Below, one piece after another: positions 20,039-63,585 of a DNA stretch of 64,000 bases (the stretch's first letter is position 1; the number at the start of each line of letters is the position of its first letter). Where the stretch lies: positions 112,118 through 176,117 of the forward strand of contig JAJUGR010000001.1 in NCBI GenBank assembly GCA_029265905.1, in the 5' to 3' direction. This stretch comes from Sporomusaceae bacterium. GTDB taxonomy: Bacteria > Bacillota > Negativicutes > Acidaminococcales > JAJUGR01. The notes under the pieces were generated by a model. That model searched no databases. It saw only the letters and a program-made list of their open reading frames with translations, and was not told the origin of the DNA. Position numbers and translations under genes: made by a program.

Positions 20039-20054
20039 AATTCCTATAGGAATT
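20039..20054. promoter_or_regulatory. 16-bp perfect palindrome AATTCCTATAGGAATT upstream of the prpF-like gene
   Basis: Read directly from the sequence. Lies about 30 bp upstream of ATG 20086. Confidence 0.3.
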
Positions 20055-20085
20055 ATTTACGCGAACAATAAAGGGGGACACCAGG

Positions 20086-21249: not shown

Positions 21250-21270
21250 TTTAATGGAGGAATTAAAGTT

Positions 21271-43881: not shown

Positions 43882-44038
43882 TGTGGATAATGTGGGTAAG
43901 TCGCCTGGTTGGAGAAAAAACGCTTTGTACAGCGAGTTGCTGGCTTGTGGATAATGTGAACAAGTCGGTGGATAACAATGGGGAAATGTGTGGACAAGCA
44001 AAATGTTAAAACGCAATCGATGGATGTGTTTTTCCACA
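43882..44038. promoter_or_regulatory. DnaA-box cluster (2 perfect, 4 one-mismatch and 1 two-mismatch boxes)
   Basis: Perfect TGTGGATAA at 43882-43890 and 43946-43954. One-mismatch boxes: TGTGGgTAA 43891-43899, gGTGGATAA 43967-43975, TGTGGAcAA 43989-43997, and TTtTCCACA in the opposite orientation at 44030-44038. Two-mismatch box: TGTGaAcAA 43955-43963. Confidence 0.75.
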
Positions 44039-44082
44039 GGACGATCGCTGATCGTCCGCGGGATGGCGGGGAGGTGGCAGCT

Positions 44083-45495: not shown

Positions 45496-46073
45496 GCAGT
45501 TTGCGCATTGTCATCGCCGATAATGAATCAATTATTCGTATGGATTTAAGGGAACTGCTCATTGAGGCAGGGCACGAGGTGATCGCCGAAGCAGCCGACG
45601 GCCGCCAGGCGGTCGAATTGGTCCGGCGTCACCGGCCGGACCTGGTCATCATGGACATCAAAATGCCGGAGATGGATGGCTTGGCGGCTGCGCGCATCAT
45701 TTCGGATGAGAAAATCGCCCCGGTACTGCTTCTGACGGCATACAGCCAGAAGGAAATTGTCGAAAAAGCGAAGGAGTCCGGCGTATTGGCCTACCTGGTC
45801 AAGCCGGTCAAAGAGGAAAACCTGTTCCCGGCCATTGAGATCGCCTTGTCGCGTTTCCAGGAATTCATGTCATTGGAGCATGAATTGGAGGGGCTCAAAA
45901 CGTCGCTGGAAGCCAGAAAACTGCTTGACCGCGCGAAGGGCGTGCTGATGGACGCCCATGGCTTGACGGAGAGCGAGGCGTATCGCCGCATCCAGCAGTA
46001 CAGCATGGCGAAACGAAAATCAATCAAGGAAGTGGCACAGGCCATTGTGACGGCGGCGACCCGCTCCCGCTAA
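45492..46073 (+). CDS. ANTAR-domain response regulator (PdtaR-like, REC + ANTAR)
   Basis: REC ('IVIADNE', 'VIMDIKMPEMDG') plus ANTAR ('KLLDRAKGVLMDAHGLTESEAYRRIQQYSM'). Confidence 0.88.
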   Translation: MSSLRIVIADNESIIRMDLRELLIEAGHEVIAEAADGRQAVELVRRHRPDLVIMDIKMPEMDGLAAARIISDEKIAPVLLLTAYSQKEIVEKAKESGVLAYLVKPVKEENLFPAIEIALSRFQEFMSLEHELEGLKTSLEARKLLDRAKGVLMDAHGLTESEAYRRIQQYSMAKRKSIKEVAQAIVTAATRSR

Positions 46074-48330: not shown

Positions 48331-48601
48331 AAGGATTTTGTTGCGCAGTAATGAAAGTAAGGCAGCGAGTACCCGTTTTATCCATTGTTCCTGAAAGGGG
48401 ATGACGATCCTTCGTTGGTCAATGTATAGTTTCATAAACAAATATGTCTAATTTTATGTACATAAAAACAGCGAAACACGGGACGCAGGGGGGCTGTTTT
48501 ATTGGCTTTGTTAGCGTAATAGTTCGACCCGATGCGCGTGATGAGCGGAAACACAGGCTAGCAAGCTGTTTATGCATTTTATTTTTTTGTCGACACTGTT
48601 T

Positions 48602-48617
48602 TGGCACGCGATTTGCA
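48602..48617 (+). promoter_or_regulatory. Sigma-54 (-24/-12) promoter P1
   Basis: TGGCAC-gcgat-TTGCA matches TGGCAC-N5-TTGCA exactly. Lies about 120 nt upstream of the permease ATG 48741. Confidence 0.8.
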
Positions 48618-48740
48618 TATAAAACAAAGCAGAGATAAAACAGCTTCATCGACGCAGGCGAATAAAGGAGGGCATTGCAAAAAAGAGGTCAGTTGTACAG
48701 TCAAAACGGTTTAAACAAAAAAATTGGGAGGTTAATAAAA

Positions 48741-50138
48741 ATGGAAGTAATCGGCATTATTCTCAGTCTGTTCTTGTTGATGTTTTTTGCCTATCGGGGC
48801 TTTTCTGTTATCCTGTTTGCGCCGGTATTCGCGCTGTTGGCCGCCTCCATGTCCGGGTTGTCTCTCATGCCTGCATACACGGAGCTGTTTATGGCCAAGG
48901 CTGTTACCTATATTAAGTCGTTTTTCCCCGTTTTCCTTTTGGGGGCTGTATTCGGGAAAATAATGGAAGATACTGGTCTGGCTAAGGGGATAGCTCAGGC
49001 CATTATCAAGACGCTAGGCAAGGAAAGAGCCATTTTAGCGGTTGTCCTTGCCGGTGCCGTGCTTACCTATGGCGGTGTCAGTTTGTTTGTCGTCGTGTTC
49101 GCCATCTATCCTTTTGCCGCAGCCTTGTTCAAGGAGGCTGAAATCCCCAAACGGCTGCTGCCGGCTTCGATTGCGCTGGGCGCGTTCACAGCTACTATGG
49201 ACTGCCTGCCTGGCACGCCGCAAATTCAAAACTTGATTCCGACGAATTTTTTTGGCACGAATATCTATGCTGCGCCTGTTTTGGGGGTCATCGGTGGGGT
49301 TTCAATCTTTGCGCTGGGCATTACCTGGCTTGACCGGCGCCGCAAAGCAGCACAGGCCGCCGGCGAAGGCTACGGCGCGCATACTTTAAATGAGCCAGAA
49401 ATCAAAGAAGACCTGGCTTTGCCATCCTGGCAGATTGCCGTTCTTCCGCTGCTGACGGTTTTGGTTGTCAACTTCGTTATGAACCGCATGTTCACTTGGG
49501 ATCCTAACATGCTGGCCCCGTTCCAAGCGATGAAACTGCCGATGACGGCGCCGGCCGTTAAAAACGTTATCAGCATCTGGTCGCTGATTATTGCGCTAGT
49601 GGCAGGTATTTTGCTGACCGTCGCCCTTGGTTATCGCAACCTTGGCAAAGGCATGCTGGCCAAGTCGTTAAATGCCGGCGCGATTGGATCGTTGCTGGCG
49701 ATCATGAACACCGCTTCAGAAGTCGGTTATGGCAATGTTGTCGCGTCGCTGGGCGGTTTCAAATCGATTTCCGGTGCCTTGATGAGCATAAAAATTGGCG
49801 GTTCGCCGCTCGTGTCTGAAGCGGTTACGGTCAACGTGCTGGCGGGCATCACTGGTTCGGCTTCAGGGGGCATGTCGATTGCACTTGACCTGATGGCAAA
49901 GGACTGGCTCGCCTGGGCGAATCAGATCGGCATGTCGCCGGAAATATTGCACCGGGTTGCATCGATGGCCTCTGGCGGCATGGATACGTTGCCGCATAAT
50001 GGTGCGGTCATCACGCTGCTGGCGGTATGCGGCTTGACGCATAAAGATTCGTATGGTGACATTTTTGTCCTGACTTGCATTAAAACCTTGATGGTGTTTG
50101 TCGTAATTGCGCTGCATAGCATTACGGGCATCCTGTAA
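48741..50138 (+). CDS. GntP-family organic-acid permease (candidate hydroxy/short-chain acid importer)
   Basis: 466 aa, polytopic. 'FGKIMEDTGLAKGIAQ' and C-terminal 'TLPHNGAVI' resemble GntP family motifs. GGGAGG RBS precedes ATG 48741. Confidence 0.6.
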   Translation: MEVIGIILSLFLLMFFAYRGFSVILFAPVFALLAASMSGLSLMPAYTELFMAKAVTYIKSFFPVFLLGAVFGKIMEDTGLAKGIAQAIIKTLGKERAILAVVLAGAVLTYGGVSLFVVVFAIYPFAAALFKEAEIPKRLLPASIALGAFTATMDCLPGTPQIQNLIPTNFFGTNIYAAPVLGVIGGVSIFALGITWLDRRRKAAQAAGEGYGAHTLNEPEIKEDLALPSWQIAVLPLLTVLVVNFVMNRMFTWDPNMLAPFQAMKLPMTAPAVKNVISIWSLIIALVAGILLTVALGYRNLGKGMLAKSLNAGAIGSLLAIMNTASEVGYGNVVASLGGFKSISGALMSIKIGGSPLVSEAVTVNVLAGITGSASGGMSIALDLMAKDWLAWANQIGMSPEILHRVASMASGGMDTLPHNGAVITLLAVCGLTHKDSYGDIFVLTCIKTLMVFVVIALHSITGIL

Positions 50139-50195
50139 TTTGGTTCAAGTTGTGGAAATGACGAAATAGTGATGATCAAGGAGTGTGGGGGAAGA

Positions 50196-51752
50196 ATGGC
50201 GAAGTTTATTACCGCCCAGGAAGCTGCGGCGCTGATTAAAGACGGTGACACTGTTGCGACCAGCGGTTTTGTCGGCATTGGGCATGCGGAAGCATTGACG
50301 GCGGCGTTGGAGACGCGTTTTTTAAATGAAGGCGCACCGCGTGATCTCACGTTGGTTTACTGCGCCGGACAAGGGGATGGAAAAGAACGCGGGTTGAACC
50401 ATCTTGGCCAGGAAGGCCTCGTGGCGCGCGTTATCGGCGGCCATTGGAATTTGGCCCCCAAATTAGGCAAGCTGGCGATTGAAAACAAGATTGAAGCATA
50501 TAATTTCCCGCAAGGTACGCTGACCCATTGGTTCCGCAATGTTGCCGGACGCAAGCCGGGTGTTATCACAAAAGTTGGCTTAAATACGTTTGTTGACCCG
50601 CGCGTAGAGGGCGGCAAACTTAATTCAGTCACGAAAGAAGATTTGGTGGAAGTTATTCATCTGGGTGGAGAAGAGTGGCTTTGGTACAAGCCGTTTCCGG
50701 TCAATGTCGCCTTAGTGCGGGGCACAAGCGCCGACGAAAAAGGCAATATTTCCATTGAACGGGAGGCGGCTTCGGTGGAAATCCTGCCGATTGCCCAGGC
50801 GGCGCAGAGCTCCGGCGGCATCGTCATTGCGCAAGTTGAGCGCATTGTGGCCAATGGGGTCATCAATCCGAAGGATGTGAAATTGCCGGGCATCAGCGTA
50901 GATTACATCGTAGTGGCGGAAAGTCCGGAGCTGCACATGCAGACTTTCGCCGAAGCCTACAACCCGGCTTATTCCGGGGAGACGCGCGTGCCGCTATCCG
51001 CGATTGCGTCCTTGCCGTTAGATGAGCGCAAAGTGATTGCCCGTCGGGCGGCTATGGAATTGATCCCTAATGCGCGGGTCAACTTGGGCATTGGGATGCC
51101 GGAAGGGGTGTCCGTTGTTGCGAACGAAGAAGGCGTCGGTCATACGATGACCCTGACGGTTGAAGTTGGTCCTGTCGGCGGCGTTCCAGCTGGGGGCTTG
51201 AGCTTCGGCGCAGCGACGAATGCTGAGGCTATTTTGGATCAGCCGTATCAATTCGACTTTTACGATGGTGGCGGCGTTGACTTGGCGTTCTTGGGACTGG
51301 CCGAAACGGACCAGCACGGCAACATCAATGTGAGCAAATTCAAGGGCCGTGTCGCCGGCTGCGGCGGATTTATCAACATCACGCAAAACGCCAAAGAGGT
51401 TGTGTTCTGCGGGACGTTTACCGCCGGCGGCTTGAAGGTCAAGGTTTGCGACGGCAAACTGAATATCGTTTCAGAAGGACGGGCGAAGAAATTCCTGGAT
51501 CATGTCGAGCAAATCACGTTCAGCGGCGCTTATGCGCAAAAAGTCAAGCAGCCCGTGTTGTATATTACGGAGCGGGCGGTGTTTAAGCTGACCGAAAAAG
51601 GGCTGATGCTGACCGAGATTGCGCCGGGCGTAGACCTGGAAAAAGATGTGCTGGCTCACATGGACTTCAAGCCGCTGATTGCAGAAAACTTGAAGTTGAT
51701 GGATGCCAGAATTTTTGCGGACGCCCCGATGGGTTTGCAGTTGAAAGCTTGA
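50196..51752 (+). CDS. Fused family-I acyl-CoA:acetate/3-ketoacid CoA-transferase (YdiF-like)
   Basis: About 518 aa, a single-chain alpha-beta fusion. '[23 protein letters not shown]' N-terminus. Confidence 0.8.
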
Positions 51753-51803
51753 ACAGCGAGGTCCGCAGTGCAGCGAAGACAATAACGAGGGTGAGGGAAT
51801 AAT

Positions 51804-52985
51804 ATGAGAGAAGCGGTTATCGTTAGTGCGGTTAGAACCGCGATCGGCAATTTCAACGGTTCGCTGGCGCCTTTCTCGGCGCCGGAACTTGGCTCGATCG
51901 TAATTAAAGAAGCCTTGGACAGGGCTGGCGTGGACGGCAAGGCTGTGGAGGAAGTGATTTTTGGGAATGTCTTGCAGGCCGGTCTTGGCCAAAACCCTGC
52001 CCGGCAGGCCGCACTGAAGGCGAACTTGCCAGTAGAGGTTCCGGCACTGACGATCAATAAGGTCTGCGGTTCCGGTCTCAAGACGGTCAATTTAGCCGCC
52101 CAGGCGATCTTGGCTGGCGACGCCGACATATTGGTTGCCGGCGGCATGGAAAGCATGACGAACGCACCGTATGTGCTTGATAAAGCCCGTTGGGGTTATC
52201 GCATGGGCAATGGCAAGCTGGTTGACGTGATGATTAATGACGGTTTGTGGTGCGCCACGAACGACTGCCATATGGGAATTACGGCGGAAAACATCGTCGA
52301 CCAATGCTGCGGTATCACTCGTGAGGCGCAGGACCAACTGGCTTACGAATCGCAGACGAAGGCCGTCGCCGCAATCGAGCGGGGCGATTTCAAGAAAGAA
52401 ATTGTGCCGGTGACTATCAAAACGAAAAAAGGCGAAGTTGTTTTTGATACTGATGAGTTCCCGCGGGCTGGAGTCACGGTCGAAGCGCTGGGTAAGCTGA
52501 AGCCGGCTTTCAAAAAAGACGGCACTGTCACCGCCGGCAATGCTTCCGGCATCAATGACGGCGCAGCCGCGCTGGTCATTATGTCGGCGGACAAAGCCAA
52601 AGCGCTGGGGCTTAAACCTCTCGCCCGCATCCGTGGTTATGCTTCAGCCGGCGTTGATCCGAGCGTTATGGGTTTGGGACCGATCACGGCAACTAGAAAA
52701 GCGCTGGCTAAGGCTGGCCTGACAGTGAATGATCTTGATCTGATCGAAGCCAATGAAGCTTTTGCCGCGCAGTTTCTGGCAGTAGGACAAGACCTGGCGT
52801 TCCCGAAAGAAAAAGTCAATGTTAACGGCGGCGCCATCGCCCTCGGTCACCCCATCGGAGCAAGCGGCGCCCGTATTTTGGTGACGTTGCTTCATGCGTT
52901 GGAAGCACGGCAAGGAAAACTAGGCCTGGCGACCTTGTGCATCGGCGGCGGACAAGGTGTGGCCACCGTTATTGAACGCTTGTAA
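51804..52985 (+). CDS. Acetyl-CoA C-acetyltransferase (thiolase II)
   Basis: '[11 protein letters not shown]', active-site '[10 protein letters not shown]', C-terminal '[15 protein letters not shown]...CIGGGQG'. Confidence 0.93.
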
Positions 52986-52991
52986 TCAAGC

Positions 52992-53024
52992 GGCATGCCA
53001 ACGGCAACTTGCCGTTGGCATGCC
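52992..53024 (+). other. Intra-operon RNA hairpin (14-bp perfect stem) between thiolase and acyl-CoA dehydrogenase genes
   Basis: ggcatgccaacggc-aactt-gccgttggcatgcc followed only by TTT. Confidence 0.5.
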
Positions 53025-53104
53025 TTTGGAGAAGAAAGTGATTAAATTCACTTTGCAACTTGCGGGTCTAGCCGCAATAAGATAAAGAACAGGAGGGGAT
53101 TAGC

Positions 53105-54244
53105 ATGTTGTTTGAGTTGACAGAAGACCAAATCATGATTCAAGAGATGGTGCGTGACTTTGCCGTTAAGGCAGTCGCACCTGGTGTGGCGGAACGCGAC
53201 GAAGCCTGCTTTTTTGACCGGGCGCTCGTCGACCAAATGGGGGAATTAGGCTTAAACGGCCTTGGTTTTCCGGAACAATACGGTGGGACAGGAACCGATT
53301 ACCTGAGCTACATTTTGGCAGTGGAAGAATTGTCAAAGGTGGACGACGGAATCGGGGTTACCTTGTCAGCCACCGCTTCGCTCTGCGCTTGGCCAATCTA
53401 CGCCTACGGCACGGAAGAACAAAAGGGAAAATACCTTCGCCCGATTTTGGAGGGCCGGCACATGGGGGCGTTTGGCCTCACGGAGCCGAACGCTGGTACC
53501 GACGCTGCCGCCCAACAGACGACGGCGGTTTTGGATGGCGAGCACTATATTTTAAACGGCAGTAAAATGTTCATCACCAATGCCGGCGAAGCGGAAACCT
53601 ATGTTGTGTTTGCCATGACTGACAAAGCCAAAGGCTTGAAAGGCATTACGGCCTTCATCCTGGAAAAGGGGATGCCTGGCTTTACCTTCGGCAAGAAAGA
53701 GCACAAGATGGGGATACATTCGTCCATCACGATGGAACTGATTTTCCAGGATGTGAAGGTCCCGAAAGCGAATCTGTTGGGTAAAGAAGGGGAAGGGTTT
53801 AAAATCGCCATGACAACGCTGGATGGCGGACGGATCGGCATCGCCGCCCAAGCGCTGGGCATCGCGCAAGCGGCGCTCGACCATGCGGTCAAATACTCCA
53901 AAGAGCGCGTGCAGTTCGGCAAGCCCATTTGCGCCAACCAAGCGATTGCCTTCATGCTGGCCGACATGCACACCAAGGTGGAGGCGGCCCGCCTGCTGAC
54001 CTATCGCGCCGCCTGGCTCAAACAGCAAAACAAGCCTTACTCCAAAGAAGCTGCAATGGCGAAAATGTACGCCGGCGACATTGCCATGGAAGTAACTACG
54101 GATGCGGTGCAAATCTTTGGCGGGTATGGCTACAGCGCTGAGTATCCAGTCGAACGGCTGATGCGGAACGCAAAAATTACGCAGATTTATGAGGGCACGA
54201 ACCAAGTGCAACGGATGGTCATTTCCGGCGCCTTGCTGCGGTAG
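53105..54244 (+). CDS. Short-chain (butyryl-CoA-type) acyl-CoA dehydrogenase
   Basis: ACAD fold; '[14 protein letters not shown]' and '[13 protein letters not shown]'. Confidence 0.93.
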
Positions 54245-54278
54245 GTGTCGGGCAAGATCCAAGCGGGAGGTAGAAAAA

Positions 54279-55064
54279 TTGGATATTATCGTATGTGTCA
54301 AGCAAGTGCCGGATACGACAGAAGTGAAAATCGATCCGCAAACCAATACGCTGATTCGTCAAGGAGTGCCGAGCATTGTCAACCCTTTTGATAAAAATGC
54401 CGTGGAGGCGGCCCTGCAATTGAAAGAACAGCACGGAGGCAAGGTGACGGTCATTTCCATGGGGCCGCCGCAAGCGCAGGAGAGCCTGAAGGAATGTTTG
54501 GCGATGGGAGCGGACGAAGCCGTGCTCATCAGTGACCGGGCGTTCGGCGGCGCCGACGTGCTGGCGACCAGCTATACGCTGGCGGCGGCGATTCGCAAGA
54601 TCGGACGTTATGATTTGGTGCTATGCGGCAAACAGGCGATCGATGGCGATACGGCGCAAGTGGGGCCGGAAATCGCCGAACATCTGGGCATTGCGCAAAT
54701 AACTTATGTTGCCAAACTTGCGGTCGAAGGCGACAACGTGCGGGTTGAGCGCGAGCACGAAGATGGCTATGAAATCCTGGAAACGAAGCTGCCGGTCTTG
54801 CTTTCCGTAGTCAAGTCGATCAATGAGCCGCGCTTTCCGACCATCAAAGGGAAAATGAGGGCCAGTCGGACCAAAATTCCGGTGTGGGGGGCGGCCGACC
54901 TTGCGGTAGACCCTGACTGCATCGGGCTAAAGGGCTCGCCCACCCAGGTGCGCAGAATCTTCACCCCTCCGCAGCGGACTCAGGGCGTTGTGATTCAAAA
55001 GGAAACGGCGCGCGAGACGGTTGTTGAGCTGATTGCAAAACTGACTGACGCGAAGCTCGTCTAA
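54279..55064 (+). CDS. etfB: Electron transfer flavoprotein beta subunit
   Basis: 'LDIIVCVKQVPDT' N-terminus. TTG 54279 lies 8 nt after a GGGAGG RBS. Confidence 0.88.
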   Translation: MDIIVCVKQVPDTTEVKIDPQTNTLIRQGVPSIVNPFDKNAVEAALQLKEQHGGKVTVISMGPPQAQESLKECLAMGADEAVLISDRAFGGADVLATSYTLAAAIRKIGRYDLVLCGKQAIDGDTAQVGPEIAEHLGIAQITYVAKLAVEGDNVRVEREHEDGYEILETKLPVLLSVVKSINEPRFPTIKGKMRASRTKIPVWGAADLAVDPDCIGLKGSPTQVRRIFTPPQRTQGVVIQKETARETVVELIAKLTDAKLV

Positions 55065-55080
55065 AGAGGGGGAAGCGATT

Positions 55081-56280
55081 ATGGCAATTAGATTTACCGA
55101 CGCCTGCATCGGGTGCGGCGCATGTGAGCCGATTTGTCCGTTTGCGGCGATTGAAATGAAGGACGGCAAGGCCTACAATACGGAAGCTTGCACGTCCTGC
55201 GGAGCCTGCGTGGACGTTTGTCCGGTCGGGGCGATTGTCCGCGAGGCTGAAGAAAAAAAGACCGCGGTCAATAAGGACGACTATCGCCATGTCTGGGTAT
55301 ACCTGGAATTGAGTGACGGGCGCCCGCGCAACGTCGGCCTCGAACTGCTGGGAGAAGGGCGCAAGCTGGCCGATGCAATGGGCCAGCAGCTGGCCGCGGT
55401 TGTGTTGGGCGAACGCGGTGCGGCCGAGGCCGGCGTAAAGGAAGCGTTCGCCTATGGGGCGGACAAGGTCTATTTGGTCGAGGGCGAGGCGTACAAACAC
55501 TACAACACGGACGCCTTCACCAGCGCTTTTGCCGATTTGATCGAGACGCACAAGCCGTCCGTCGTACTCATCGGCGCGACCAATGACGGGCGCGATTTGG
55601 CGCCGCGGATCGCTTGCCGCGTCAAAACCGGCTTAACGGCAGATTGCACCGACCTCGGCATTGACGAGGCGACAGGATTGGTGGCCTGGACCAGACCGGC
55701 TTTCGGCGGCAACATTATGGCCACCATCCTTTGTGCCGATCATCGCCCGCAGATGGGCACCGTGCGCCCGAACGTATTCAAGCGTCCGGCGCCGGATTAC
55801 GGCCGCAGCGGTGAAGTAGTTGTTGTGGCGGGTAAAGTAGGGCCGCAAGATGCGCGCGTCAAGTTCATCGACCTGTTGCGCGTTTGCACAGCCTCCTGCA
55901 ACCTGGAAGAAGCGGAAGTCATTGTTTCGGGCGGGCGCGGCATGTGCAACCGGGAGAACTTTGCCTTGCTGGAACAGCTGGCGGAAGTCCTGGGCGGCAC
56001 CGTCGGCGCTTCGCGGGCGGCGGTTGACGCCGGCTGGCAGTCGGCGCTGCAGCAAGTCGGGCAGAGCGGTAAAACGGTCGGACCCAAAATCTACTTTGCC
56101 TTCGGCATTTCCGGAGCCATCCAGCATTTGGCCGGCATGTCCTCCTCCGACGTGGTCATTGCCATCAACAAGGACCCGGACGCGCCGATCTTCAAGGTGG
56201 CCGATTACGGCGTCGTCGGAGACGCAATGGAAATCTTGCCGATCATGATTGAAGAGTTCAAAAAGCTGAAGGGAAAATGA
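55081..56280 (+). CDS. etfA: Electron transfer flavoprotein alpha subunit with N-terminal 2x[4Fe-4S] ferredoxin domain
   Basis: '[12 protein letters not shown]' and '[12 protein letters not shown]' in the first 60 aa or so, then an EtfA body ('[15 protein letters not shown]'). Confidence 0.9.
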
Positions 56281-56314
56281 TGCGCAAGCGTCAGCTGAAA
56301 GGAGCGCGGCACTG

Positions 56315-57088
56315 ATGAGCTTATTGTATGAAAACGATAACGGCATTGCCACCATAACCATGAACCGGCCCCAAGCCTTGAACGCCCTGAATACAGCAAC
56401 TTTGAAAGAACTCGACAACTTGCTGGACGTGATTGCCGGCGACAGCGGCGTGAAGGTTGTGATCCTGACCGGGAGCGGAGAAAAAGCGTTTGTGGCCGGC
56501 GCGGATATTGCGGAAATGAAGCCCTTGTCCGCGCTGGAGGGGCGGGCGTTTGGAAAAATGGGGCAGGCTGTTTTCAACAAGCTGGAAAACCTGCCTCAGC
56601 CGGTCATTGCGGCGGTGAACGGCTTTGCCCTGGGGGGCGGCTGTGAGCTGGCGATGGCCTGCGATCTGCGGATCGCCTCGGACAAGGCGAAATTCGGCCA
56701 GCCAGAAGTCAGCCTGGGCATTACCCCAGGGTTTGGCGGAACCCAGCGCCTGCCGCGCTTGGTCGGCAAAGGCCGGGCGATGGAACTGTTGTTCACCGGC
56801 GACGTTATTGATGCCGCGGAAGCGTACCGGATCGGCTTGGTGAACAAAGTGGTTGCTTCGGATGAATTGCTGGCGACAGCTAAAGCGGCAGCGCAAAAAA
56901 TCATGGCGCGGGCGGAAGTTGCGGTTCAGCTTTGCAAAGCGGCGATTAATGAAGGCCTGAACATGGATCTTGCGTCAGGCATGGCCTACGAGCGAGAAGT
57001 GTTTGGCCTCTGCTTTGCCACCTCTGACCAAAAAGAGGGCATGGCTGCTTTTTTGGAAAAACGCGCAGCGTCGTTCAGTGGCAAGTAA
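56315..57088 (+). CDS. Enoyl-CoA hydratase (crotonase family)
   Basis: 'FVAGADIAEM' and 'GFALGGGCELAMACD' oxyanion-hole motifs. Confidence 0.9.
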   Translation: MSLLYENDNGIATITMNRPQALNALNTATLKELDNLLDVIAGDSGVKVVILTGSGEKAFVAGADIAEMKPLSALEGRAFGKMGQAVFNKLENLPQPVIAAVNGFALGGGCELAMACDLRIASDKAKFGQPEVSLGITPGFGGTQRLPRLVGKGRAMELLFTGDVIDAAEAYRIGLVNKVVASDELLATAKAAAQKIMARAEVAVQLCKAAINEGLNMDLASGMAYEREVFGLCFATSDQKEGMAAFLEKRAASFSGK

Positions 57089-57145
57089 GGCTGCGAGTCA
57101 AAGCAACCACGAGATGCTATAATTGAGGGATTGAAAAGCGAGGCA

Positions 57146-57568
57146 ATGACGATGGTGAGAGATGTTCCATTTGCGGAAATTCAAATTGGTGACAAAGCCA
57201 GCATGGCGAAAACGATTAGCGATTATGATGTGTATGGGTTTGCCGGCATCACCGGTGACTTCAATCCGGTTCACGTCAATGACGAATTTGCCAAAACGAC
57301 GCAGTTTAAAGGACGCATTGCCCACGGTATGCTGTCTGCCGGCTTGATTTCGGCTGTTATTGGGACGGCGTTGCCGGGAATGAACGCCATATACTTGGGA
57401 CAGGAGCTCACGTTTAAGTTGCCGGCCCGGGTCGGCGATACGTTGACGGCGACGGTGGAAGTCTTGGAGAAGATCGAAGCAAAAAAACGGTTGATTTTTC
57501 GCACGACAGTCGTTAACCAGGAGGGAAAGCTTGTTGTTGATGGCAAAGCCACAATCATGAAAAAATAG
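57146..57568 (+). CDS. MaoC-like (R)-specific enoyl-CoA hydratase/dehydratase
   Basis: Hot-dog fold with motif 'GDFNPVHVNDEFAKTTQFKGRIAHG'. Start is ambiguous (57131, 57146 or 57152). Confidence 0.8.
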   Translation: MTMVRDVPFAEIQIGDKASMAKTISDYDVYGFAGITGDFNPVHVNDEFAKTTQFKGRIAHGMLSAGLISAVIGTALPGMNAIYLGQELTFKLPARVGDTLTATVEVLEKIEAKKRLIFRTTVVNQEGKLVVDGKATIMKK

Positions 57569-57581
57569 GGTGCGGGTTTTT

Positions 57582-57617
57582 AAAATGGGAGCGCAAGCAG
57601 GCGCTCCCATTTTTTGA
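57582..57617 (+). terminator. Rho-independent terminator ending operon 1
   Basis: aaaatgggagcgc-aagcag-gcgctcccatttt followed by TTT. Confidence 0.9.
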
Positions 57618-57743
57618 TTCGGAGGCGAGGATGCTTAGCTCATGTCCTGTAAACTAGACAGTGTGTCGAAGTGAATATACAAAAGATCTAGACATCATTT
57701 TCGGGAAGGCTTGGTTTATCAGCGGTCGTAGCCAATTGGAATT

Positions 57744-57759
57744 TGGCACGCTTTTTGCA
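57744..57759 (+). promoter_or_regulatory. Sigma-54 (-24/-12) promoter P2
   Basis: TGGCAC-gcttt-TTGCA is an exact consensus match. Lies about 90 nt upstream of the SDR ATG 57849. Confidence 0.8.
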
Positions 57760-57848
57760 TCAAAGCTAAGTGCGTCAGTTGCGCGAACTCCATTTGTTAG
57801 TTTTGGAAGGCATCTGGCCAGATGATGAAAAAGTAGGAGGATCAGAGT

Positions 57849-58589
57849 ATGAGAGGGTTAAAAGACAAAGTAGCGATTATTACGGGTGCTGCCGGTGGAA
57901 TTGGCAAAGCTACCGCTCTGCGTTTTGCTGAAGAGGGAGCTAAAGTAGTTGTTGCTGATTTTAGTGATGGTTCGGCGACTGTTGCCGAAGTTAAGGCCCA
58001 AGGCTCGGATGCCGTTTATGTTCAAGTGGATGTTACCTCGCCTGATAGCGTCAAACTGATGGTTGAAAAAGCACTCGAAGCCTTCGGACGCATTGATGTT
58101 CTGATCAATAATGCCGGGATCACCAAAGATGCGATGATGAAAAAGATGAGTAAAGATGCCTGGGACGCGGTTATCAGCGTTAACCTGACCGGCGTATTCA
58201 ATTGCACGTCAGCTGTATTGCCGCATTTGTTGGAACAACAATCCGGTGTAGTGCTTACGACTTCCTCCGTCGTCGGTCTTTATGGCAATTTGGGGCAGAC
58301 AAACTACGCTGCTACAAAATGGGGCGTGATTGGGATGACAAAGTCGTGGGCCAAAGAAATGGCTAAAAACGGTTTGCGTTTCAACTGCGTGGCGCCTGGA
58401 TTTATTGGTACTGAAATGGTAAAGAAAATTCCTGAGCAAGTGCTGAAAGAAAAAATTCTAATCAAAGTTCCGGCCAATCGTTTGGGCGAGCCCGAAGAAA
58501 TTGCTGCTGCGTTTGCCTTCCTTGCTTCGGATGATGCAAAATTCATTAATGGCGCTGTTCTTAGCGTTGATGGCGCCTGCACCCTGTAA
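57849..58589 (+). CDS. SDR-family 3-oxoacyl reductase (FabG/PhaB-like; candidate 3-hydroxyacyl-CoA dehydrogenase)
   Basis: 'ITGAAGGIGKA' cofactor motif, 'NNAG', catalytic 'YAATK'. Confidence 0.88.
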   Translation: MRGLKDKVAIITGAAGGIGKATALRFAEEGAKVVVADFSDGSATVAEVKAQGSDAVYVQVDVTSPDSVKLMVEKALEAFGRIDVLINNAGITKDAMMKKMSKDAWDAVISVNLTGVFNCTSAVLPHLLEQQSGVVLTTSSVVGLYGNLGQTNYAATKWGVIGMTKSWAKEMAKNGLRFNCVAPGFIGTEMVKKIPEQVLKEKILIKVPANRLGEPEEIAAAFAFLASDDAKFINGAVLSVDGACTL

Positions 58590-58603
58590 CGGTCGGATTT
58601 ATT

Positions 58604-58631
58604 GGGGCTGCCTTAAATGCAGCCCCTTTTG
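58604..58631 (+). other. Short hairpin with T-tract between the SDR and thiolase genes (possible partial terminator)
   Basis: ggggctgc-cttaaat-gcagcccc followed by TTTT. Confidence 0.45.
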
Positions 58632-58667
58632 CGTGCTTGATTATTCTAAAGTTGTAGGAGGAGTAAG

Positions 58668-59873
58668 ATGAACACAAGAGAAGTTGTGGTCGTCAGCGCC
58701 TGCCGGACGGCGATTGGCAAGTTCATGGGGTCGCTGGGCGGGGTATCGGCCCGCGAATTAGCCATGACGGTCGGGAAAGAAGCCATCAAGCGAGCCGGCA
58801 TTAATCCGGAAAGCATTGATGAAATCGTTATGGGACAGTTGTATACGGGCTTGCAGGGATCATTGCCCGCCCGACAAGTTGCCATGCGTATCGGGCTTCC
58901 GCATCGCAGTGCGGCCGTTAGTGTCAATCAAAACTGCGCTTCGGGGATGCGGGCGCTGGAGATTGCGGCCAGCAACATCCTGCTGGGCAAAACGGAGATT
59001 GGCTTGGTAATCGGCGTGGAGAGCATGACGAATGCGCCTTATATGCTGCCGAAAGCGCGCATGGGCTACCGGATGGGGAACGGCACGATCGAAGACTCCA
59101 TGCTGCACGACGGTCTGTTCGACGAACTGGTTCCCGGACACATGGGCGTGACGGCGGAAAACGTAGCGGCCGCGTACGGCATCACCAGGCAGGAGTGCGA
59201 TGAACTGGCGGTGACGAGCCATACGCGCGCCGCCCGGGCAATTGACGAAGGACGTTTTAAGCGGGAAATCGTTCCGGTTGAAATACAGGGGAAGAAAGGG
59301 CCGACCTTTTTTGACACGGATGAGCACTTGATTCGTGGCTGCACAGCGGAGTCGCTGGGCAAACTGGCGCCGGTCTTTAAAAAAGACGGCGTAGTGACGG
59401 CGGCCAATGCCTCCGGCATCAATGACGGGGCTTCGGCGGTGATCGTCATGTCGGGTGAGAAGGCGCAGGAGCTCGGCTTAAAGCCACTGGGGAAAATGCT
59501 CAGCATAGTAAGTGAGGGTGTGGATCCGCAGCTCATGGGCATTGGACCGGCGGTTGCGATCCCCAAAGCGCTGAAAGCGGCGCAGCAGGCCTTTGAGGAG
59601 ATTGAATACTGGGAAATCAATGAGGCATTTGCGGCGCAGTGGTTGGGCGTAGGTCGCGCGCTGAAGCAGGATGCCGGCATCGAACTCGATCTGGATAAGG
59701 TCAACCACAACGGGTCGGGCATAGCACTTGGTCACCCGGTCGGTTCGTCGGGGTTGCGGATCGTCGTATCTTTGCTGTACGAAATGGAGCGGTTGAACCT
59801 GACACTGGGCGGGGCGTCGCTTTGCGTAGGCGGCGGCCCGGCGATGGCTTCCTTGTGGTCAAGAGAAGCGTAA
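58668..59873 (+). CDS. Acetyl-CoA C-acyltransferase (second thiolase paralogue)
   Basis: 'VVVSACRTAIGKF', 'VNQNCASGMRA', 'NGSGIALGHPVGSSG...CVGGGPA'. Confidence 0.93.
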   Translation: MNTREVVVVSACRTAIGKFMGSLGGVSARELAMTVGKEAIKRAGINPESIDEIVMGQLYTGLQGSLPARQVAMRIGLPHRSAAVSVNQNCASGMRALEIAASNILLGKTEIGLVIGVESMTNAPYMLPKARMGYRMGNGTIEDSMLHDGLFDELVPGHMGVTAENVAAAYGITRQECDELAVTSHTRAARAIDEGRFKREIVPVEIQGKKGPTFFDTDEHLIRGCTAESLGKLAPVFKKDGVVTAANASGINDGASAVIVMSGEKAQELGLKPLGKMLSIVSEGVDPQLMGIGPAVAIPKALKAAQQAFEEIEYWEINEAFAAQWLGVGRALKQDAGIELDLDKVNHNGSGIALGHPVGSSGLRIVVSLLYEMERLNLTLGGASLCVGGGPAMASLWSREA

Positions 59874-60008
59874 TGTTGGGGCTGTATATACCTGGTTTTG
59901 TCTTGCGTAAAGACAGCCTTTAAATAAAAGTGTCTACTTTGCGCGACAAAAGAGGTTTTTGCCAGATGGCGTCTAATCATTAAGGCGGAGAATGAAAGGG
60001 AGGGTGCT

Positions 60009-62102
60009 ATGAATATTCGAGACATTATGCGTGGACAAGTGGTTACCGTTCGACCGGAGATGACAATTCGACACGCCGCCGCCCTTTTCTACCGGACTAC
60101 CGTCGATGGGGCGCCTGTAGTTGACGGAGACGGACGGCTTATCGGTTTGATCACAAAGTCTCAATTCATCAAGGCGCTGTCGGATGGCCTCTCGCTGGAC
60201 GCGCAAGTACAGGCGATGATGAACACCGCGGTGTTCACGTTGACGGAAAACATGACGGTGCCTGGTTTGACGCGTACGAAGGAAATCTATCAGTATAGCT
60301 GCTTTCCTGTCTTGGATAGCAAGGGCAGGCCGGTCGGCATGATTAACCGTACCGATTTGGTGAAGTACTTGGCGGAAAAATATGTTTTTTTAGCTGATGA
60401 GATGCAGGCGGTTCTTGATTCGGTCAGCAATGGTGTGATGGCAACGAACAGCGAAGGTATTCTAACGATCTTTAACCCCGCTGCCGAGCGTATCACCGGA
60501 CTTCATGCCGATGCGGTCCTGGGGCGCTATGCGTATGAAGCCATTCCCAATTCAGGCTTGCAACGCGTATTGGAGACCGGGGCGGCCGAGCTTAACCAGC
60601 AGCAGACCCTTAATGATTGCACGATTATTACAAATCGCTCGCCAATCATTAAGGACAATAAAATTTGCGGCGCGGTGGCAATCTTCCAGGATGTAACGGA
60701 ACTTCAAGCCGTGGCTGCGGAACTGGAAATGGTCAAAAGCCTGCAAAGCACCTTGGAGTCAGCGATAGAAAGCATTTTTGAAGGCATAGTCGTCGTTGAC
60801 AAGGCTGGCATGATCACCATGATGAACCAAGCTTATAAGGAGTTTCTCGGGGTGGAAACGCGGGAAGTGATCGGGCAGCATGTCACTAAAATCGTACCCA
60901 ATACCCGCATGCATATTGTCGCCCAGACCGGCAAGGCTGAATTGGGGGAAGTGCAGCGAATCGGCGACAACAATGTCATTGTCAGCCGTATTCCCATTAT
61001 AAAAGACGGCGAGGTCGTTGGGGCGGTTGGGAAGGTTTTGTTTAAAGATCTCAAAGACTTTAAGCTGCTGGCTCGTAAGCTGAACACCTTGCAGTCTGAA
61101 TTGGAGTACTATAAGGAGGAGCTGAACAAGGTTCATGGCGGCAAGTATACGATCGAGCGCATTGTCGGAGACAGCGAAAAATTGCGGTGGCTGAAAAGCG
61201 TAGCGGTGAAAGCGGCCAAAGGCAACTCAACTGTTTTGATATTGGGCGAGAGTGGAACAGGCAAGGAACTATTCGCCCACGCGATTCACAATGCCAGCTC
61301 GCGCAGCCAAGGGCCGCTGATTAAGATCAATTGCGCGGCGCTGCCGGAAAACCTGTTGGAAGCCGAATTGTTCGGCTATGATGAAGGGGCTTTTACCGGG
61401 GCGAGAAAAGGCGGCAAACCTGGAAAGTTTGAGCTGGCGAACGGTGGAAGCATTTTCCTTGATGAAATCGGCGATATGACTATGGCTATGCAGGCTAAGC
61501 TGTTGCGCGTTTTGCAGGAACGTGAAATCGAGCGGGTAGGCGGCACAAAGACGATCAAGATTGATGTTAGGGTCATTGCGGCTACGAACCGGGATTTGGA
61601 GGACATGATAGAGCGCGGCGAATTCAGGCAAGATTTGTACTACCGGCTCAATATCATCACGCTCGTTATTCCGCCCTTGCGGGAACGTAAAGAGGATATA
61701 CCAGCCCTGTGCGCGACGTTGTTGAAGAAAATCAATAATCATTTTGATTATGGGGTTGACGAAGTGTCGCCGGAGGCAATGGCGGTTTTGACGGAATACA
61801 ATTGGCCGGGCAATGTCCGGGAATTGGAAAATGTGCTGGAGCGGGCGGTCAATTTAGTTGATGAAGAAACCATGATTTTTCCGCAGCACTTGCCGCCCCT
61901 GGTCAAAAAGGCGTATAAATCCAAGGAGGGGCCAGATAAAGATACTGAGCAGAAGTTGTCAAGCGTGATAGATGATGCCGAGAAGCAAGCCATTTGCAAA
62001 GCGCTTGAAGCAGCTGGCGGCAACAAAAGCAAAGCGGCTAAGCTGCTGGGGATTCATCGTTCTGGCTTTTATCAAAAACTGCAAAAGTATAATCTTGGCT
62101 GA
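60009..62102 (+). CDS. Sigma-54-dependent transcriptional activator (CBS pair, 2 PAS, AAA+, Fis-type HTH)
   Basis: Walker A 'GESGTGKE', sigma-54 contact loop 'GAFTGA', 'NWPGNVRELEN', C-terminal HTH 'KSKAAKLLGIHRSGFYQK'. Confidence 0.93.
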   Translation: MNIRDIMRGQVVTVRPEMTIRHAAALFYRTTVDGAPVVDGDGRLIGLITKSQFIKALSDGLSLDAQVQAMMNTAVFTLTENMTVPGLTRTKEIYQYSCFPVLDSKGRPVGMINRTDLVKYLAEKYVFLADEMQAVLDSVSNGVMATNSEGILTIFNPAAERITGLHADAVLGRYAYEAIPNSGLQRVLETGAAELNQQQTLNDCTIITNRSPIIKDNKICGAVAIFQDVTELQAVAAELEMVKSLQSTLESAIESIFEGIVVVDKAGMITMMNQAYKEFLGVETREVIGQHVTKIVPNTRMHIVAQTGKAELGEVQRIGDNNVIVSRIPIIKDGEVVGAVGKVLFKDLKDFKLLARKLNTLQSELEYYKEELNKVHGGKYTIERIVGDSEKLRWLKSVAVKAAKGNSTVLILGESGTGKELFAHAIHNASSRSQGPLIKINCAALPENLLEAELFGYDEGAFTGARKGGKPGKFELANGGSIFLDEIGDMTMAMQAKLLRVLQEREIERVGGTKTIKIDVRVIAATNRDLEDMIERGEFRQDLYYRLNIITLVIPPLRERKEDIPALCATLLKKINNHFDYGVDEVSPEAMAVLTEYNWPGNVRELENVLERAVNLVDEETMIFPQHLPPLVKKAYKSKEGPDKDTEQKLSSVIDDAEKQAICKALEAAGGNKSKAAKLLGIHRSGFYQKLQKYNLG

Positions 62103-62204
62103 TTGTAAAATGAAGTTGAACACCTAAAAAAATCCATAGTGACTTTTCCTCAGATGGTAAAATGGAGTTCCCACACAACCATCACCAAAGAGGAGGCGAT
62201 CACT

Positions 62205-62724
62205 ATGGACCGCCATGATTATAACACAGAAGTGACAGAGCGAAAACGCGGTCAGCTCTTTGGCGCTAGAGGAGATTGAGATCGGCGCACTGCCAATTTA
62301 TAACCAAGATTTTGACGATGAGAATATTCCTCCGCCAGCCTGGATAGCCTTTCTTGAGCAGATGAAGGGTTTTTGATGGCGTCATTTTTGTCACGCCCGA
62401 GTACAACCGCTCGGTTCCTGCGGTGCTGAAAAATACGCTGGATGTTGGTTCGCGCCCTTACGGGCAGAGTATCTGGTATGGCAAGCCTGGGGCAGTAGTG
62501 AGCGTTTCGCCAGGAGCAATAAGCGGGTTTGGTGCAAATCATCTTTTGCGGCAATTGCTGGTGTTCTTAAATGTTCCGGCGATGCAGCAACCTGAGGCTT
62601 ATATCGGCAATGCCGCAATCCTTCTTGACGCGCAAGGGGAGCTTGTAAATGAAAACACGCGAGCGTTTTGCGGAAAGTGATGGAGGCTTATGTGGCTTTG
62701 GTTGGGGAAAATGCGTGCCAATGA
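62205..62724 (+). pseudogene. Degraded NADPH-dependent FMN reductase gene (in-frame stop, two frameshifts, shortened N-terminus)
   Basis: Homologous peptide runs in frame 1 ('EIEIGALPIYNQDFDDE...EQMKGF'), frame 2 ('DGVIFVTPEYNRSVPAVLKNTLDVGSRPYG...') and frame 1 again ('LRKVMEAYVALVGENA'). TGA at 62233. Frame changes fall at T-runs 62370-62374 and 62666-62669. Confidence 0.7.
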
Positions 62725-62824
62725 TGTTACAATGTGCTTTGTGGGGGGCGAGGTTTAAGTAGAGGGAGCTAAGCGTCGGCCACTTGGCTTGTTCGGATTT
62801 TGTTTTTGAAAGTGGCAAAAAGGT

Positions 62825-62865
62825 AGATGGTGTTCGTGAGTTCCCTGAACTCACGAACACCATCT
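62825..62865 (-). terminator. Rho-independent terminator (18-bp stem) downstream of the UPF0316-like gene
   Basis: agatggtgttcgtgagtt / aactcacgaacaccatct. On the minus strand it is followed by acCTTTTTg. Confidence 0.75.
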
Positions 62866-62908
62866 TTGTCTTGTGCGCTTTCAAATTCGCGGCGGTAGTG
62901 GCCACGCC

Positions 62909-63361
62909 TCAGATGCCGGAAGAATACACCGGCGTTATAATATTGTAGTTGAAGCTAGGTGGTATGCTTTTTTCGATTAACTTGCTTGTGGTTTTGGATT
63001 TGCTGTACACGCGCACCGTTACGGTTTTTTCGCGGCTGTTGTTGAAGCAAATGTTCGTATTTACTTGCAAATCATACTCCCTTAATTTGTCCGCAAAGGC
63101 CATGCCGGTCTCGAGATCCTGCGATGTTACTTCATACAGGAACAGCTTATCTTTGTCGAGGTAATGCAATAGCTTTGGCGGAAGGTAATTGCCTAAGAAA
63201 GTAGCGAGAAAGATGGTCGCATACACGTAGTCTCCTGATTGCTGCGCGGCATATATGAAAAACACGACGCTTAAAGAGGCGGACACAGCCGCAGCGAAAT
63301 ATTTGTCCTTACATATGAAAATGGTTTTTAAGACATTGAATGCACAATCAAACAATTTCAC
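62909..63361 (-). CDS. UPF0316/DUF2179-like small membrane protein, possibly N-terminally truncated
   Basis: Two TM segments, then a soluble domain ('LYEVTSQDLETGMAFADKLREYDLQVN...VTVRVYSKS') that resembles DUF2179 by recall. GTG start. Lies in an AT-richer region. Confidence 0.45.
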   Translation of the reverse strand: MKLFDCAFNVLKTIFICKDKYFAAAVSASLSVVFFIYAAQQSGDYVYATIFLATFLGNYLPPKLLHYLDKDKLFLYEVTSQDLETGMAFADKLREYDLQVNTNICFNNSREKTVTVRVYSKSKTTSKLIEKSIPPSFNYNIITPVYSSGI

Positions 63362-63585
63362 CCAAAATAGAGCAAGGATTGATGCCGAGATAATTATTGC
63401 TACATCACCAACGTTTCTTTTTTATTTTATAAGCTTTTTGCGCGCACAAAAAAGCCGCCTGCCAGGAATTTCAGCAAGCGACTTTATTTTAACAGCACCA
63501 AGATATTAAAAGGAAAAAAGCTTACTTGATCAGTATATATTGCCGAGAAGGTTTTGTCAACGGATAATTAAAACAAATAGCCGGA

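Follow-up and report, generated by a model that had tools for sequence, protein, structure and literature searches.

A predicted one-component sigma-54 regulon for the uptake and CoA-level catabolism of a short 3-hydroxy acid in a Sporomusaceae bacterium

What might a bacterium do with an acyl-coenzyme A (CoA) pathway that is placed behind two sigma-54 promoters and followed by the gene for its own enhancer-binding protein? This question is raised by positions 48602-62102 of a 64,000-nucleotide stretch of DNA (hereafter, the window) from a Sporomusaceae bacterium (assembly GCA_029265905.1, contig JAJUGR010000001.1, positions 112,118 to 176,117 of the forward strand). Eleven open reading frames (ORFs), none with an internal stop, form the cluster: a permease, a CoA-transferase, a thiolase, a butyryl-CoA dehydrogenase (Bcd), the two electron-transfer flavoprotein subunits (EtfB and EtfA), a crotonase and a MaoC-type hydratase in a first operon; a short-chain dehydrogenase/reductase (SDR) and a second thiolase behind the second promoter; and then the activator. 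The original prediction for this locus had proposed a self-contained module that takes up 3-hydroxybutyrate, crotonate or acetoacetate and dismutates it through thiolase and Bcd/Etf. Our own reading, to which we assign a probability of about 60%, is that of a one-component sigma-54 regulon that serves to take up a short 3-hydroxy or enoic acid inducibly and to catabolize it at the CoA level; the acid would most likely be (R)-3-hydroxybutyrate, and probably also crotonate.

The promoter motif TGGCACNNNNNTTGCA has exactly two matches in the window, at 48602-48617 and 57744-57759, both of them intergenic and on the plus strand. Chance would supply a mean of 0.04 matches of TGGCAC-N5-TTGCA, and two or more were found in 0 of 100 dinucleotide-preserving shuffles; allowing one mismatch adds only two further sites (39108 and 49600), which is the chance level. 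In each copy (-24 TGGCAC, -12 TTGCA) the GG and GC elements are ten bases apart in a TGGCAC-N5-TTGCW pattern. Promoter 1 lies in a 417-bp gap past the groEL terminator, and promoter 2 in the gap between the terminator of the first operon and the SDR gene. From the end of the -12 element it is 124 nt to the permease ATG (48741) and 90 nt to the SDR ATG (57849), which bears out the earlier description of two intergenic copies some 90-120 nt ahead of operons. A search of the whole window against Rfam gave no match, hence no known riboswitch or leader in these long 5' untranslated regions.

The distribution of the same motif among relatives is instructive. We fetched 47 loci, onto which the eleven window proteins and the Hbd of Thermosinus were mapped by tblastn, and we looked for a strict form of the motif, TGG[CT]A[CT]-N5-TTGC[AT], at most 350 nt upstream of each gene. 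Equivalents of promoter 1 precede the permease gene in 24 of 27 loci and the CoA-transferase gene in 15 of 18; the window is one of the three exceptions to the latter, as its CoA-transferase gene is internal to the operon. For the SDR gene, 12 of 22 loci show an equivalent of promoter 2; of the SDR genes that lack one, nearly all sit no more than 45 nt behind a thiolase gene. On the other hand, 89 acad, etfB, etfA, hbd and crt genes were examined, and not one of them has the motif before it. Judged from sequence comparison, this is the pattern of true sigma-54 promoters and not of chance, and it is because the motif is kept in relatives before operon-leading genes, and not before internal ones, that we consider the regulatory part of our reading to be strong. 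The use of sigma-54 in this bacterial group is further supported by Sporomusa, in which SigL is present and SigL promoters have been mapped (PMC12456013).

A second regulatory element, missed by the original prediction, accompanies these promoters. When TGT-Nk-ACA was counted for k = 6 to 16 over the 260 bp upstream of the orthologous promoters, k = 12 alone stood out (5.84 per kb versus a background of 0.26 per kb, a 22-fold difference); N10 and N11 spacings had no comparable enrichment, and the smaller rises at k = 14 and k = 16 probably come from overlapping TGTGT/ACACA ends. The consensus of 73 distinct sites is an 18-bp palindrome, TGTmTA-N6-TAkACA, found mostly as tandem pairs whose starts are 21-22 bp, or two helical turns, apart, a spacing that is kept in relatives. 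Two such predicted enhancer pairs (upstream activating sequences, UAS) are present in the window. Sites 1a (TGTATAGTTTCATAAACA, 48423-48440) and 1b (TGTCTAATTTTATGTACA, 48445-48462, 22 bp after 1a) are positioned 179 and 157 nt upstream of promoter 1, while sites 2a (TGTCCTGTAAACTAGACA, 57643-57660) and 2b (TGTCGAAGTGAATATACA, 57664-57681, 21 bp after 2a) are positioned 101 and 80 nt upstream of promoter 2; both pairs fall in the range of 70-200 bp upstream that is expected of palindromes bound by enhancer-binding proteins. A single UAS-like site (TGTCTACTTTGCGCGACA, 59931-59948) is located 78 nt before the activator ATG, and a similar single site is found at -30 to -110 of the activator gene in 22 of the 27 loci with a full-length activator. 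The placement of this site suggests autoregulation, and so the activator gene is probably controlled through a single operator. In the whole window, TGT-N12-ACA has 15 matches versus 7 expected, five of them in the cluster's three intergenic regions. Another match, the direct repeat TGTCACA-N4-TGTCACA at 11436-11453, is unrelated to the activator palindromes: it sits between a divergent resistance-nodulation-division efflux operon (HlyD_D23 and AcrB; 6918-11356, minus strand) and a pair of OmpR-type regulator and histidine kinase genes (11522-13698), and it looks like a response-regulator binding site.

The activator that we presume to act at these sites is encoded at 60009-62102, on the plus strand, as are all the other genes of the cluster. 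Domain searches, motifs and a structural model describe a sigma-54 enhancer-binding protein of 697 residues with the order CBS-CBS-PAS-PAS-AAA+-HTH_8 (PF00158, Sigma54_activat, 240 bits; PF02954, HTH_8, 56 bits). Walker A (GESGTGK) is at residue 413, Walker B (DEIG) at 485, and the GAFTGA loop occupies residues 460-465, in agreement with the CBS-PAS activator first recognized at this position. The predicted structure (mean predicted local distance difference test score, 81.7) has the same domain order, with long helices as connectors. There is no Response_reg domain in the protein, which sets it apart from two-component regulators of the AtoC type. Across 38 aligned homologues the second PAS domain is the best-conserved sensor region, with invariant polar residues N298, T299, H302, E311, Q316 and R327 and the motif NTRMHIVAQTGKAE. 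The CBS pair, on the other hand, is missing from the Sporomusa orthologues (588 residues) and from more distant homologues, for which reason we view it as an accessory input. The histidine kinase and antiterminator genes near the cluster (43978-46073; a PdtaS-like kinase with GAF_PdtaS and HisKA_2 domains, then a receiver-ANTAR protein, just upstream of groES-groEL) are a system separate from the activator.

The identities of the genes under promoter 1 were checked by Pfam, NCBIfam and PDB sequence searches, which confirmed the content first given for this operon. All of the catalytic and nucleotide-binding motifs that we checked in the cluster were present save one, the catalytic Glu motif of the CoA-transferase, for which a simple pattern search of the ORF gave no match. 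The leading gene (48741-50138) encodes a GntP-family permease of 465 residues, the length also seen in relatives; we place its start at ATG 48741, which has a GGGAGG ribosome-binding site, and not at TTG 48675, where the ORF opens. Next is a fused family-I CoA-transferase of the YdiF/FadX type (50196-51752, 518 residues; the ORF opens at 50169), with a fused alpha/beta CoA_trans fold that aligns with Escherichia coli YdiF (2ahu, 511 bits) over residues 8-525; its score against the FadX model, 451 bits, is under the 750-bit equivalog cut-off. Thiolase 1 (51804-52985) was assigned by profile and PDB matches as an acetoacetyl-CoA thiolase, the group to which both thiolases of the cluster are closest in the PDB search.

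The dehydrogenase (53105-54244) most resembles the Bcd of Acidaminococcus fermentans (4l1f, 589 bits) and that of Megasphaera elsdenii (1buc). It is followed by EtfB (54279-55064; 261 residues from a TTG start placed by orthologue length) and by an EtfA (55081-56280) with an N-terminal 2x[4Fe-4S] ferredoxin domain, in which two CxxCxxCxxxCP motifs are present; the latter matches CarE over its full length, ferredoxin domain included (6fah, 411 bits), ahead of 4kpu (367 bits). A Bcd-type dehydrogenase adjacent to EtfB and to an EtfA related to bifurcating Etfs is the gene arrangement of a putative electron-bifurcating Bcd/EtfAB complex. The last two genes encode an S-specific short-chain enoyl-CoA hydratase, or crotonase (56315-57088; NF004475, 406 bits, above the cut-off), and a MaoC hydratase of the R-specific PhaJ type (57146-57568; the ORF opens at 57131), with PhaJ structures 5cpg and 1iq6 as matches and the hydratase-2 motif FAGITGDFNPVH. 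Transcription would end at the strong intrinsic terminator that had been noted at 57582-57617 and that our folding bears out (-27.6 kcal/mol, z = -4.2). We also considered the acrylate pathway, as suggested by AcrABC-like NCBIfam matches, and rejected it: the scores are under the equivalog cut-offs, there is no lactoyl-CoA dehydratase, and the PDB search ranks Bcd first.

Downstream of promoter 2, the SDR gene (57849-58589) encodes a protein with TGxxxGIG, NNAG and YxxxK motifs, the best PDB matches of which are 2et6, the (3R)-hydroxyacyl-CoA dehydrogenase of the multifunctional enzyme type 2 (MFE-2) from Candida tropicalis, and 4nbu, a bacterial FabG-like enzyme, with FabG and PhaB next. Strand beta-2 ends in Asp (VVVADF), the usual mark of a preference for NAD over NADP. 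We consider this SDR to be most likely the pathway's NAD-dependent (3R)-3-hydroxyacyl-CoA dehydrogenase; its motifs and closest families, taken with the hydratase-2 motif of MaoC, would make the two an R-specific pair. The earlier observation that Hbd, Ptb and Buk are absent holds, as tblastn detected no Hbd homologue anywhere in the window and no Ptb or Buk domain was present among the window ORFs scanned. Hbd would be unneeded, since the R-specific SDR and the PhaJ-like MaoC hydratase could serve in its stead; we infer that the C4 route is encoded complete, in the R stereochemistry, with SDR in the place of Hbd. The SDR is also better conserved across genera (82-91% identity) than are the activator (60-77%) and the Etf subunits (67-80%).

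Thiolase 2 (58668-59873) is without a close orthologue in the clusters of relatives. Its identity and that of the SDR stand as originally described, and whether the two genes form one operon is uncertain, because a hairpin followed by TTTT separates them (58604-58626; GC-rich 8-bp stem, -18.2 kcal/mol, z = -1.9), a possible weak terminator or attenuator. Scans of the window for sigma-70 promoters and for terminators were at chance level overall.

The cluster is one local version of a widespread regulon and, as gene comparisons indicate, is not unique to this genome; the permease usually has a divergent promoter of its own. An orthologous activator stands beside the same genes in about 40 Negativicutes loci, and its nearest named relatives all belong to that class: Anaerospora hongkongensis (77% identity), Thermosinus carboxydivorans (72%) and Sporolituus thermophilus (71%), then Sporomusa (65-67% over the part that aligns, which begins at about residue 128) and Pelosinus (61-63%). 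In Anaerospora, Sporomusa, Pelosinus, Thermosinus and many metagenome-assembled genomes (MAGs), the activator family, at 60-77% identity, is linked to these genes; it almost always adjoins some combination of the permease gene, a CoA-transferase-thiolase-Bcd-EtfB-EtfA-MaoC unit and the SDR gene. The best-kept partners are the permease (83-88% identity in orthologues that adjoin the activator) and the SDR. In most relatives the permease gene is divergently transcribed, unlike in the window, where it leads the long operon. Every locus has at least one of SDR and Hbd: Anaerospora, a UBA7701 MAG and Sporomusa carry SDR and MaoC without Hbd or crotonase, Thermosinus and most Pelosinus loci carry Hbd, crotonase and MaoC, and some other loci carry both sets. 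This co-occurrence of gene linkage, footprinted promoters and a shared enhancer motif supports the view, already put forward in the original prediction, that two real sigma-54 promoters and a cognate activator gate a self-contained short-acid module.

Several features of these relatives lead us to favor uptake and catabolism. The activator is most tightly partnered by an uptake-type permease and a dehydrogenase. Two minimal regulons (loci L011 and L015) hold just a permease, and a CoA-transferase-thiolase-SDR-activator set, with neither Bcd/Etf nor a hydratase; such a module suffices to convert a 3-hydroxy acid into two acetyl-CoA and would be of no use either in butyrate formation or in the breakdown of a saturated acid. 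Genes for methyl-accepting chemotaxis proteins are embedded in clusters of Pelosinus, Sporomusa and Natroniella (L024, 5804-7531; L027, 6099-6977; L032, 7190-8059; L047, 21463-21752), which suggests taxis towards the cluster's substrate; the Pelosinus receptor is a 575-residue transmembrane protein, those of Sporomusa are soluble, of about 290 residues, and lie between the CoA-transferase operon and the permease, and that of Natroniella follows the permease. A related module is found in a strain named Natroniella sp. ANB-PHB2, with a PAS-PAS activator, MaoC-Bcd-EtfBA, two CoA-transferases, a GntP permease, the chemoreceptor and one sigma-54 promoter, before the second CoA-transferase; its link to polyhydroxybutyrate (PHB) comes solely from the strain name, as the only paper naming the strain is unrelated. 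For Sporomusa sphaeroides, 3-hydroxybutyrate is recorded as a growth substrate in Table 1 of PMC6315149, which cites Moller et al. 1984.

We hypothesize that the system operates as follows. The activator, made from its own promoter and probably autoregulated, would bind its effector, probably through the highly conserved second PAS domain, with the CBS pair probably adding an adenosine-nucleotide input. In that state it would assemble on the two palindromes, two helical turns apart, upstream of each promoter, and its ATP-driven GAFTGA loops would open the sigma-54 holoenzyme complex at TGGCAC-N5-TTGCA. Promoter 1 would give an 8.9-kb transcript from permease to MaoC that ends at the terminator, and promoter 2 an SDR transcript, with thiolase 2 expressed by read-through. 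The acid would be imported by the permease, converted to its CoA ester by the YdiF-type transferase with acetyl-CoA as donor, oxidized from (R)-3-hydroxybutyryl-CoA to acetoacetyl-CoA by the SDR and cleaved by thiolase to two acetyl-CoA. In parallel, the PhaJ-like hydratase would form crotonyl-CoA, which Bcd/EtfAB, probably bifurcating electrons, would reduce to butyryl-CoA as an electron sink; crotonase and MaoC together could interconvert the S and R hydroxyacyl-CoA. MaoC-Bcd-Etf would thus act as the reductive branch where the acid is dismutated to acetate and butyrate, or would make crotonate usable; that branch is supported by the match of the dehydrogenase to the A. fermentans and M. elsdenii enzymes and of EtfA to CarE. 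Of the substrate claim in the original prediction, the thiolase and Bcd/Etf dismutation fits both the enzymes and the minimal modules, and the SDR and PhaJ-like MaoC assignments would narrow the choice of acids towards an R-3-hydroxy acid.

How does this scheme compare with other explanations of the same genes? That both promoter motifs are chance matches, with sigma-70 promoters transcribing the genes and the activator controlling something else, we regard as scarcely credible: weak sigma-70-like hexamers do occur in the region and rpoN was not seen in the window, but the hexamers are no commoner than in shuffles, and chance would account neither for two exact sigma-54 motifs where 0.04 are expected, nor for their retention only before orthologous operon-leading genes, nor for their co-occurrence with the enhancer motif. 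A synthetic direction is less easily dismissed, although we think it improbable. By this explanation the cluster would form butyrate inducibly from acetyl-CoA by reverse beta-oxidation, through thiolase, an NADH-dependent R-specific acetoacetyl-CoA reductase, PhaJ, Bcd/Etf and a butyryl-CoA:acetate CoA-transferase, and redox or energy state would switch the activator, of which the CBS pair could report energy charge. The enzyme set suffices for this, the SDR comes close in score to the models for FabG and acetoacetyl-CoA reductase, activator homologues are present in Lucifera butyrica and Acetonema longum, both of which produce butyrate (PMC6315149), and a near-identical regulon of Clostridium, that of CrbR, has been classed as one of butyrate/butanol synthesis (PMC6615313). 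However, the cluster also occurs in Sporomusa acetogens, and Sporomusa sphaeroides KIAC has no butyrate pathway according to its authors (PMC12456013). An uptake-type permease and an SDR as the most conserved partners, the chemoreceptor genes in several clusters, the inability of the two minimal modules to make butyrate and the NAD-indicating Asp, which fits a catabolic dehydrogenase, all argue in the same direction.

It is also unlikely, to a similar degree, that the cluster serves another short- or medium-chain acid as a general inducible beta-oxidation system, with butyrate, valerate, 3-hydroxyvalerate, hexanoate, a branched acid (2-methylbutyrate) or 4-hydroxybutyrate as candidates. YdiF-type transferases are described as accepting a broad range of short acyl groups, breadth is also suggested by the two thiolases and by the presence of both R- and S-hydratases, and one locus (L012) has a different transporter within the cluster. 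Against these points, the dehydrogenase is closest to C4-specific Bcd enzymes and both thiolases to acetoacetyl-CoA thiolases, while minimal modules devoid of acyl-CoA dehydrogenase and hydratase imply a substrate that is already a 3-hydroxy or 3-oxo compound when it enters. An AbfD-like gene of the HpaB family that stands just upstream in Thermosinus could be taken to favor 4-hydroxybutyrate, but it lies outside the sigma-54 promoter and has no counterpart here. In that locus (L003, 1-1077, Thermosinus carboxydivorans), HpaB-family, NifU-like and AF_0334-family genes are directly upstream of the promoter of the CoA-transferase operon; the HpaB family contains 4-hydroxybutyryl-CoA dehydratase, and the gene may thus link to 4-hydroxybutyrate metabolism in that species.

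Catabolism of (R)-3-hydroxybutyrate remains the reading that we prefer, and the following points weigh against it. Its substrate, effector, stereochemistry and flux direction were assigned from homology and gene content, and the CrbR classification just cited points the other way. The match of the permease to GntP is weak (36 bits), with no characterized close relative. A reductive role is equally compatible with the SDR, given its scores near FabG and acetoacetyl-CoA reductase models. The presence of crotonase without Hbd in the window is explained only through an epimerase role, and the use of Hbd plus crotonase in Thermosinus and Pelosinus indicates that R-specificity is not universal in the regulon. 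Foldseek searches with the sensor gave only generic matches from which no ligand can be inferred: adenosine-ligand-binding CBS proteins for the CBS pair (MJ0100, AcuB) and tandem PAS sensors for the PAS pair (DosP, MmoS, FixL, CitA PASc). Finally, no match to RpoN was found within the 64-kb window.

Some neighboring genes and variant loci deserve mention. At 15308-18884 of the window, genes for a NuoE-like 2Fe-2S thioredoxin-like ferredoxin, a NuoF-like FMN/4Fe-4S subunit and an [FeFe]-hydrogenase large subunit with a small-subunit domain are adjacent; this is the layout of a HydABC-type hydrogenase, probably electron-bifurcating, that could serve as an outlet for the reduced ferredoxin and NADH of the Bcd/Etf branch. 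A 462-residue protein with a class-3 lipase domain is encoded at 13729-15117, and 19042-22533 holds a LysR regulator gene that diverges from the genes for a PrpF-family isomerase and for a DcuC-type C4-dicarboxylate carrier. Past the activator (62103-63580), about 1.5 kb holds only small minus-strand ORFs without a Pfam match, together with a perfect hairpin (19-bp stem, loop of 3; 62825-62865) that is terminator-like on both strands; in relatives, this position is occupied instead by a DUF2007 gene and a pyruvate-kinase-like gene. Some genomes carry two paralogous activator-permease pairs (L008 and L038 in Anaerospora hongkongensis; L009 and L034; L010 and L011), the second of which is 56-68% (activator) and 80-84% (permease) identical to that of the window; the second Anaerospora pair (L038) has uninformative neighbors, with no acyl-CoA genes among them, and is without the strict promoter motif. 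A metagenomic locus (L005, 1724-9877) holds CoA-transferase, thiolase, Hbd, EtfB, EtfA, thiolase and SDR without acyl-CoA dehydrogenase, MaoC or crotonase, so that its Etf pair is without an obvious partner dehydrogenase. A sigma-54 regulator beside a CoA-transferase in Sporomusa sphaeroides KIAC belongs to another, FixABCX-type cluster with two dehydrogenases, and we did not use it as evidence.

A more ambitious proposal, towards which we are tentative and somewhat inclined to doubt, is that this locus is the first example of an undescribed one-component sigma-54 regulon, common among Negativicutes and extending to other anaerobic Firmicutes such as Natroniella, which would give fermenters and acetogens a means to scavenge (R)-3-hydroxybutyrate, the monomer of PHB, by combining a split, MFE-2-like R-route with flavin-based electron bifurcation; the PAS domains would receive the substrate signal, and the CBS pair (lost, e.g., in Sporomusa) a signal of adenosine nucleotides or CoA thioesters. 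If the reading that we prefer holds, genes that many Negativicutes carry, and that are annotated only as generic 'FabG', 'GntP permease' or 'Fis family regulator', would gain a function, a regulator, their promoter and enhancer motifs and a testable inducer. It would also explain the oxidation of 3-hydroxybutyryl-CoA in anaerobes without Hbd and offer acetogens and fermenters a route by which to consume PHB breakdown products. The 18-bp enhancer and the -24/-12 pair make a compact, tight off/on switch that could be put to use in Sporomusa and Pelosinus genetics. The general principles are unchanged, as AtoC, HbcR and the predicted CrbR regulon are earlier instances in which sigma-54 governs the catabolism of short-chain acids.

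Comparison with these and other systems places the regulon more exactly. Two analogues, one in E. coli and one in Pseudomonas aeruginosa, have been validated functionally. In E. coli, AtoC, a response regulator phosphorylated by AtoS, directs sigma-54-dependent transcription of atoDAEB for the catabolism of acetoacetate and short-chain acids. Both systems set a sigma-54 activator over a CoA-transferase, a short-chain acid transporter and an acetoacetyl-CoA thiolase, and thiolase 1 is close to the E. coli thiolase structure 5f38, which we take to be AtoB. The window activator differs in having no receiver domain and in carrying CBS-PAS-PAS; its transferase is fused and of the YdiF type, unlike the two-subunit AtoDA, its transporter is GntP-like and not AtoE, and Bcd/Etf, PhaJ, crotonase and SDR are additional. 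The targets of HbcR in Pseudomonas aeruginosa act on the free acid through 3-hydroxybutyrate dehydrogenase, whereas oxidation in the window would take place at the level of the CoA ester and be linked to Bcd/Etf. Both regulators are one-component sigma-54 activators of the PAS type: HbcR (PA2005) is described (Lundgren et al. 2015, as cited in PMC10482368 and PMC8694187) as a PAS enhancer-binding protein that (R)-3-hydroxybutyrate activates and that controls the catabolism of this acid, and the domains listed for it in PMC8694187 comprise one PAS domain and no CBS pair. MFE-2 and PhaB-PhaJ likewise pair a (3R)-hydroxyacyl-CoA dehydrogenase of the SDR type with a hydratase 2 of the MaoC type; in the window, however, the two are separate small proteins of putative R stereochemistry, encoded in two operons of one regulon of a strict anaerobe and coupled to Bcd/Etf. 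Similarly, the 589-bit match to A. fermentans Bcd and the full-length alignment of EtfA with CarE relate the reductive branch to the electron-bifurcating complexes Bcd/EtfAB and CarCDE (A. fermentans, Clostridioides difficile, Acetobacterium woodii), although its presumed substrate is crotonyl-CoA and not the caffeyl-CoA of CarCDE.

The closest described system is the CrbR regulon of Clostridium, a computational prediction that was labelled butyrate synthesis and for which the signal is not known (Nie, Dong & Yang 2019, BMC Genomics 20:565; PMC6615313). Its gene content is nearly the same, the window holding the CrbR gene families save for SDR in the place of Hbd, and several TGT...ACA palindromic enhancers lie upstream in both. 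The sites themselves differ: those of CrbR are 16-17 bp long (TGTA-N8/9-TACA), as opposed to 18 bp (TGTmTA-N6-TAkACA) in the window and its relatives, so that the window sites are not of the CrbR type. We ran two activator homologue searches, the second of which was seeded with a distant Bacillota activator (L037) and reached Desulfotomaculum, Natroniella, Pelotomaculum and others; no named protein of the genus Clostridium was among the best 120 hits of either. The clostridial clusters carry Hbd, in whose stead the window, which comes from a member of the Negativicutes and not from a Clostridium, has an SDR.

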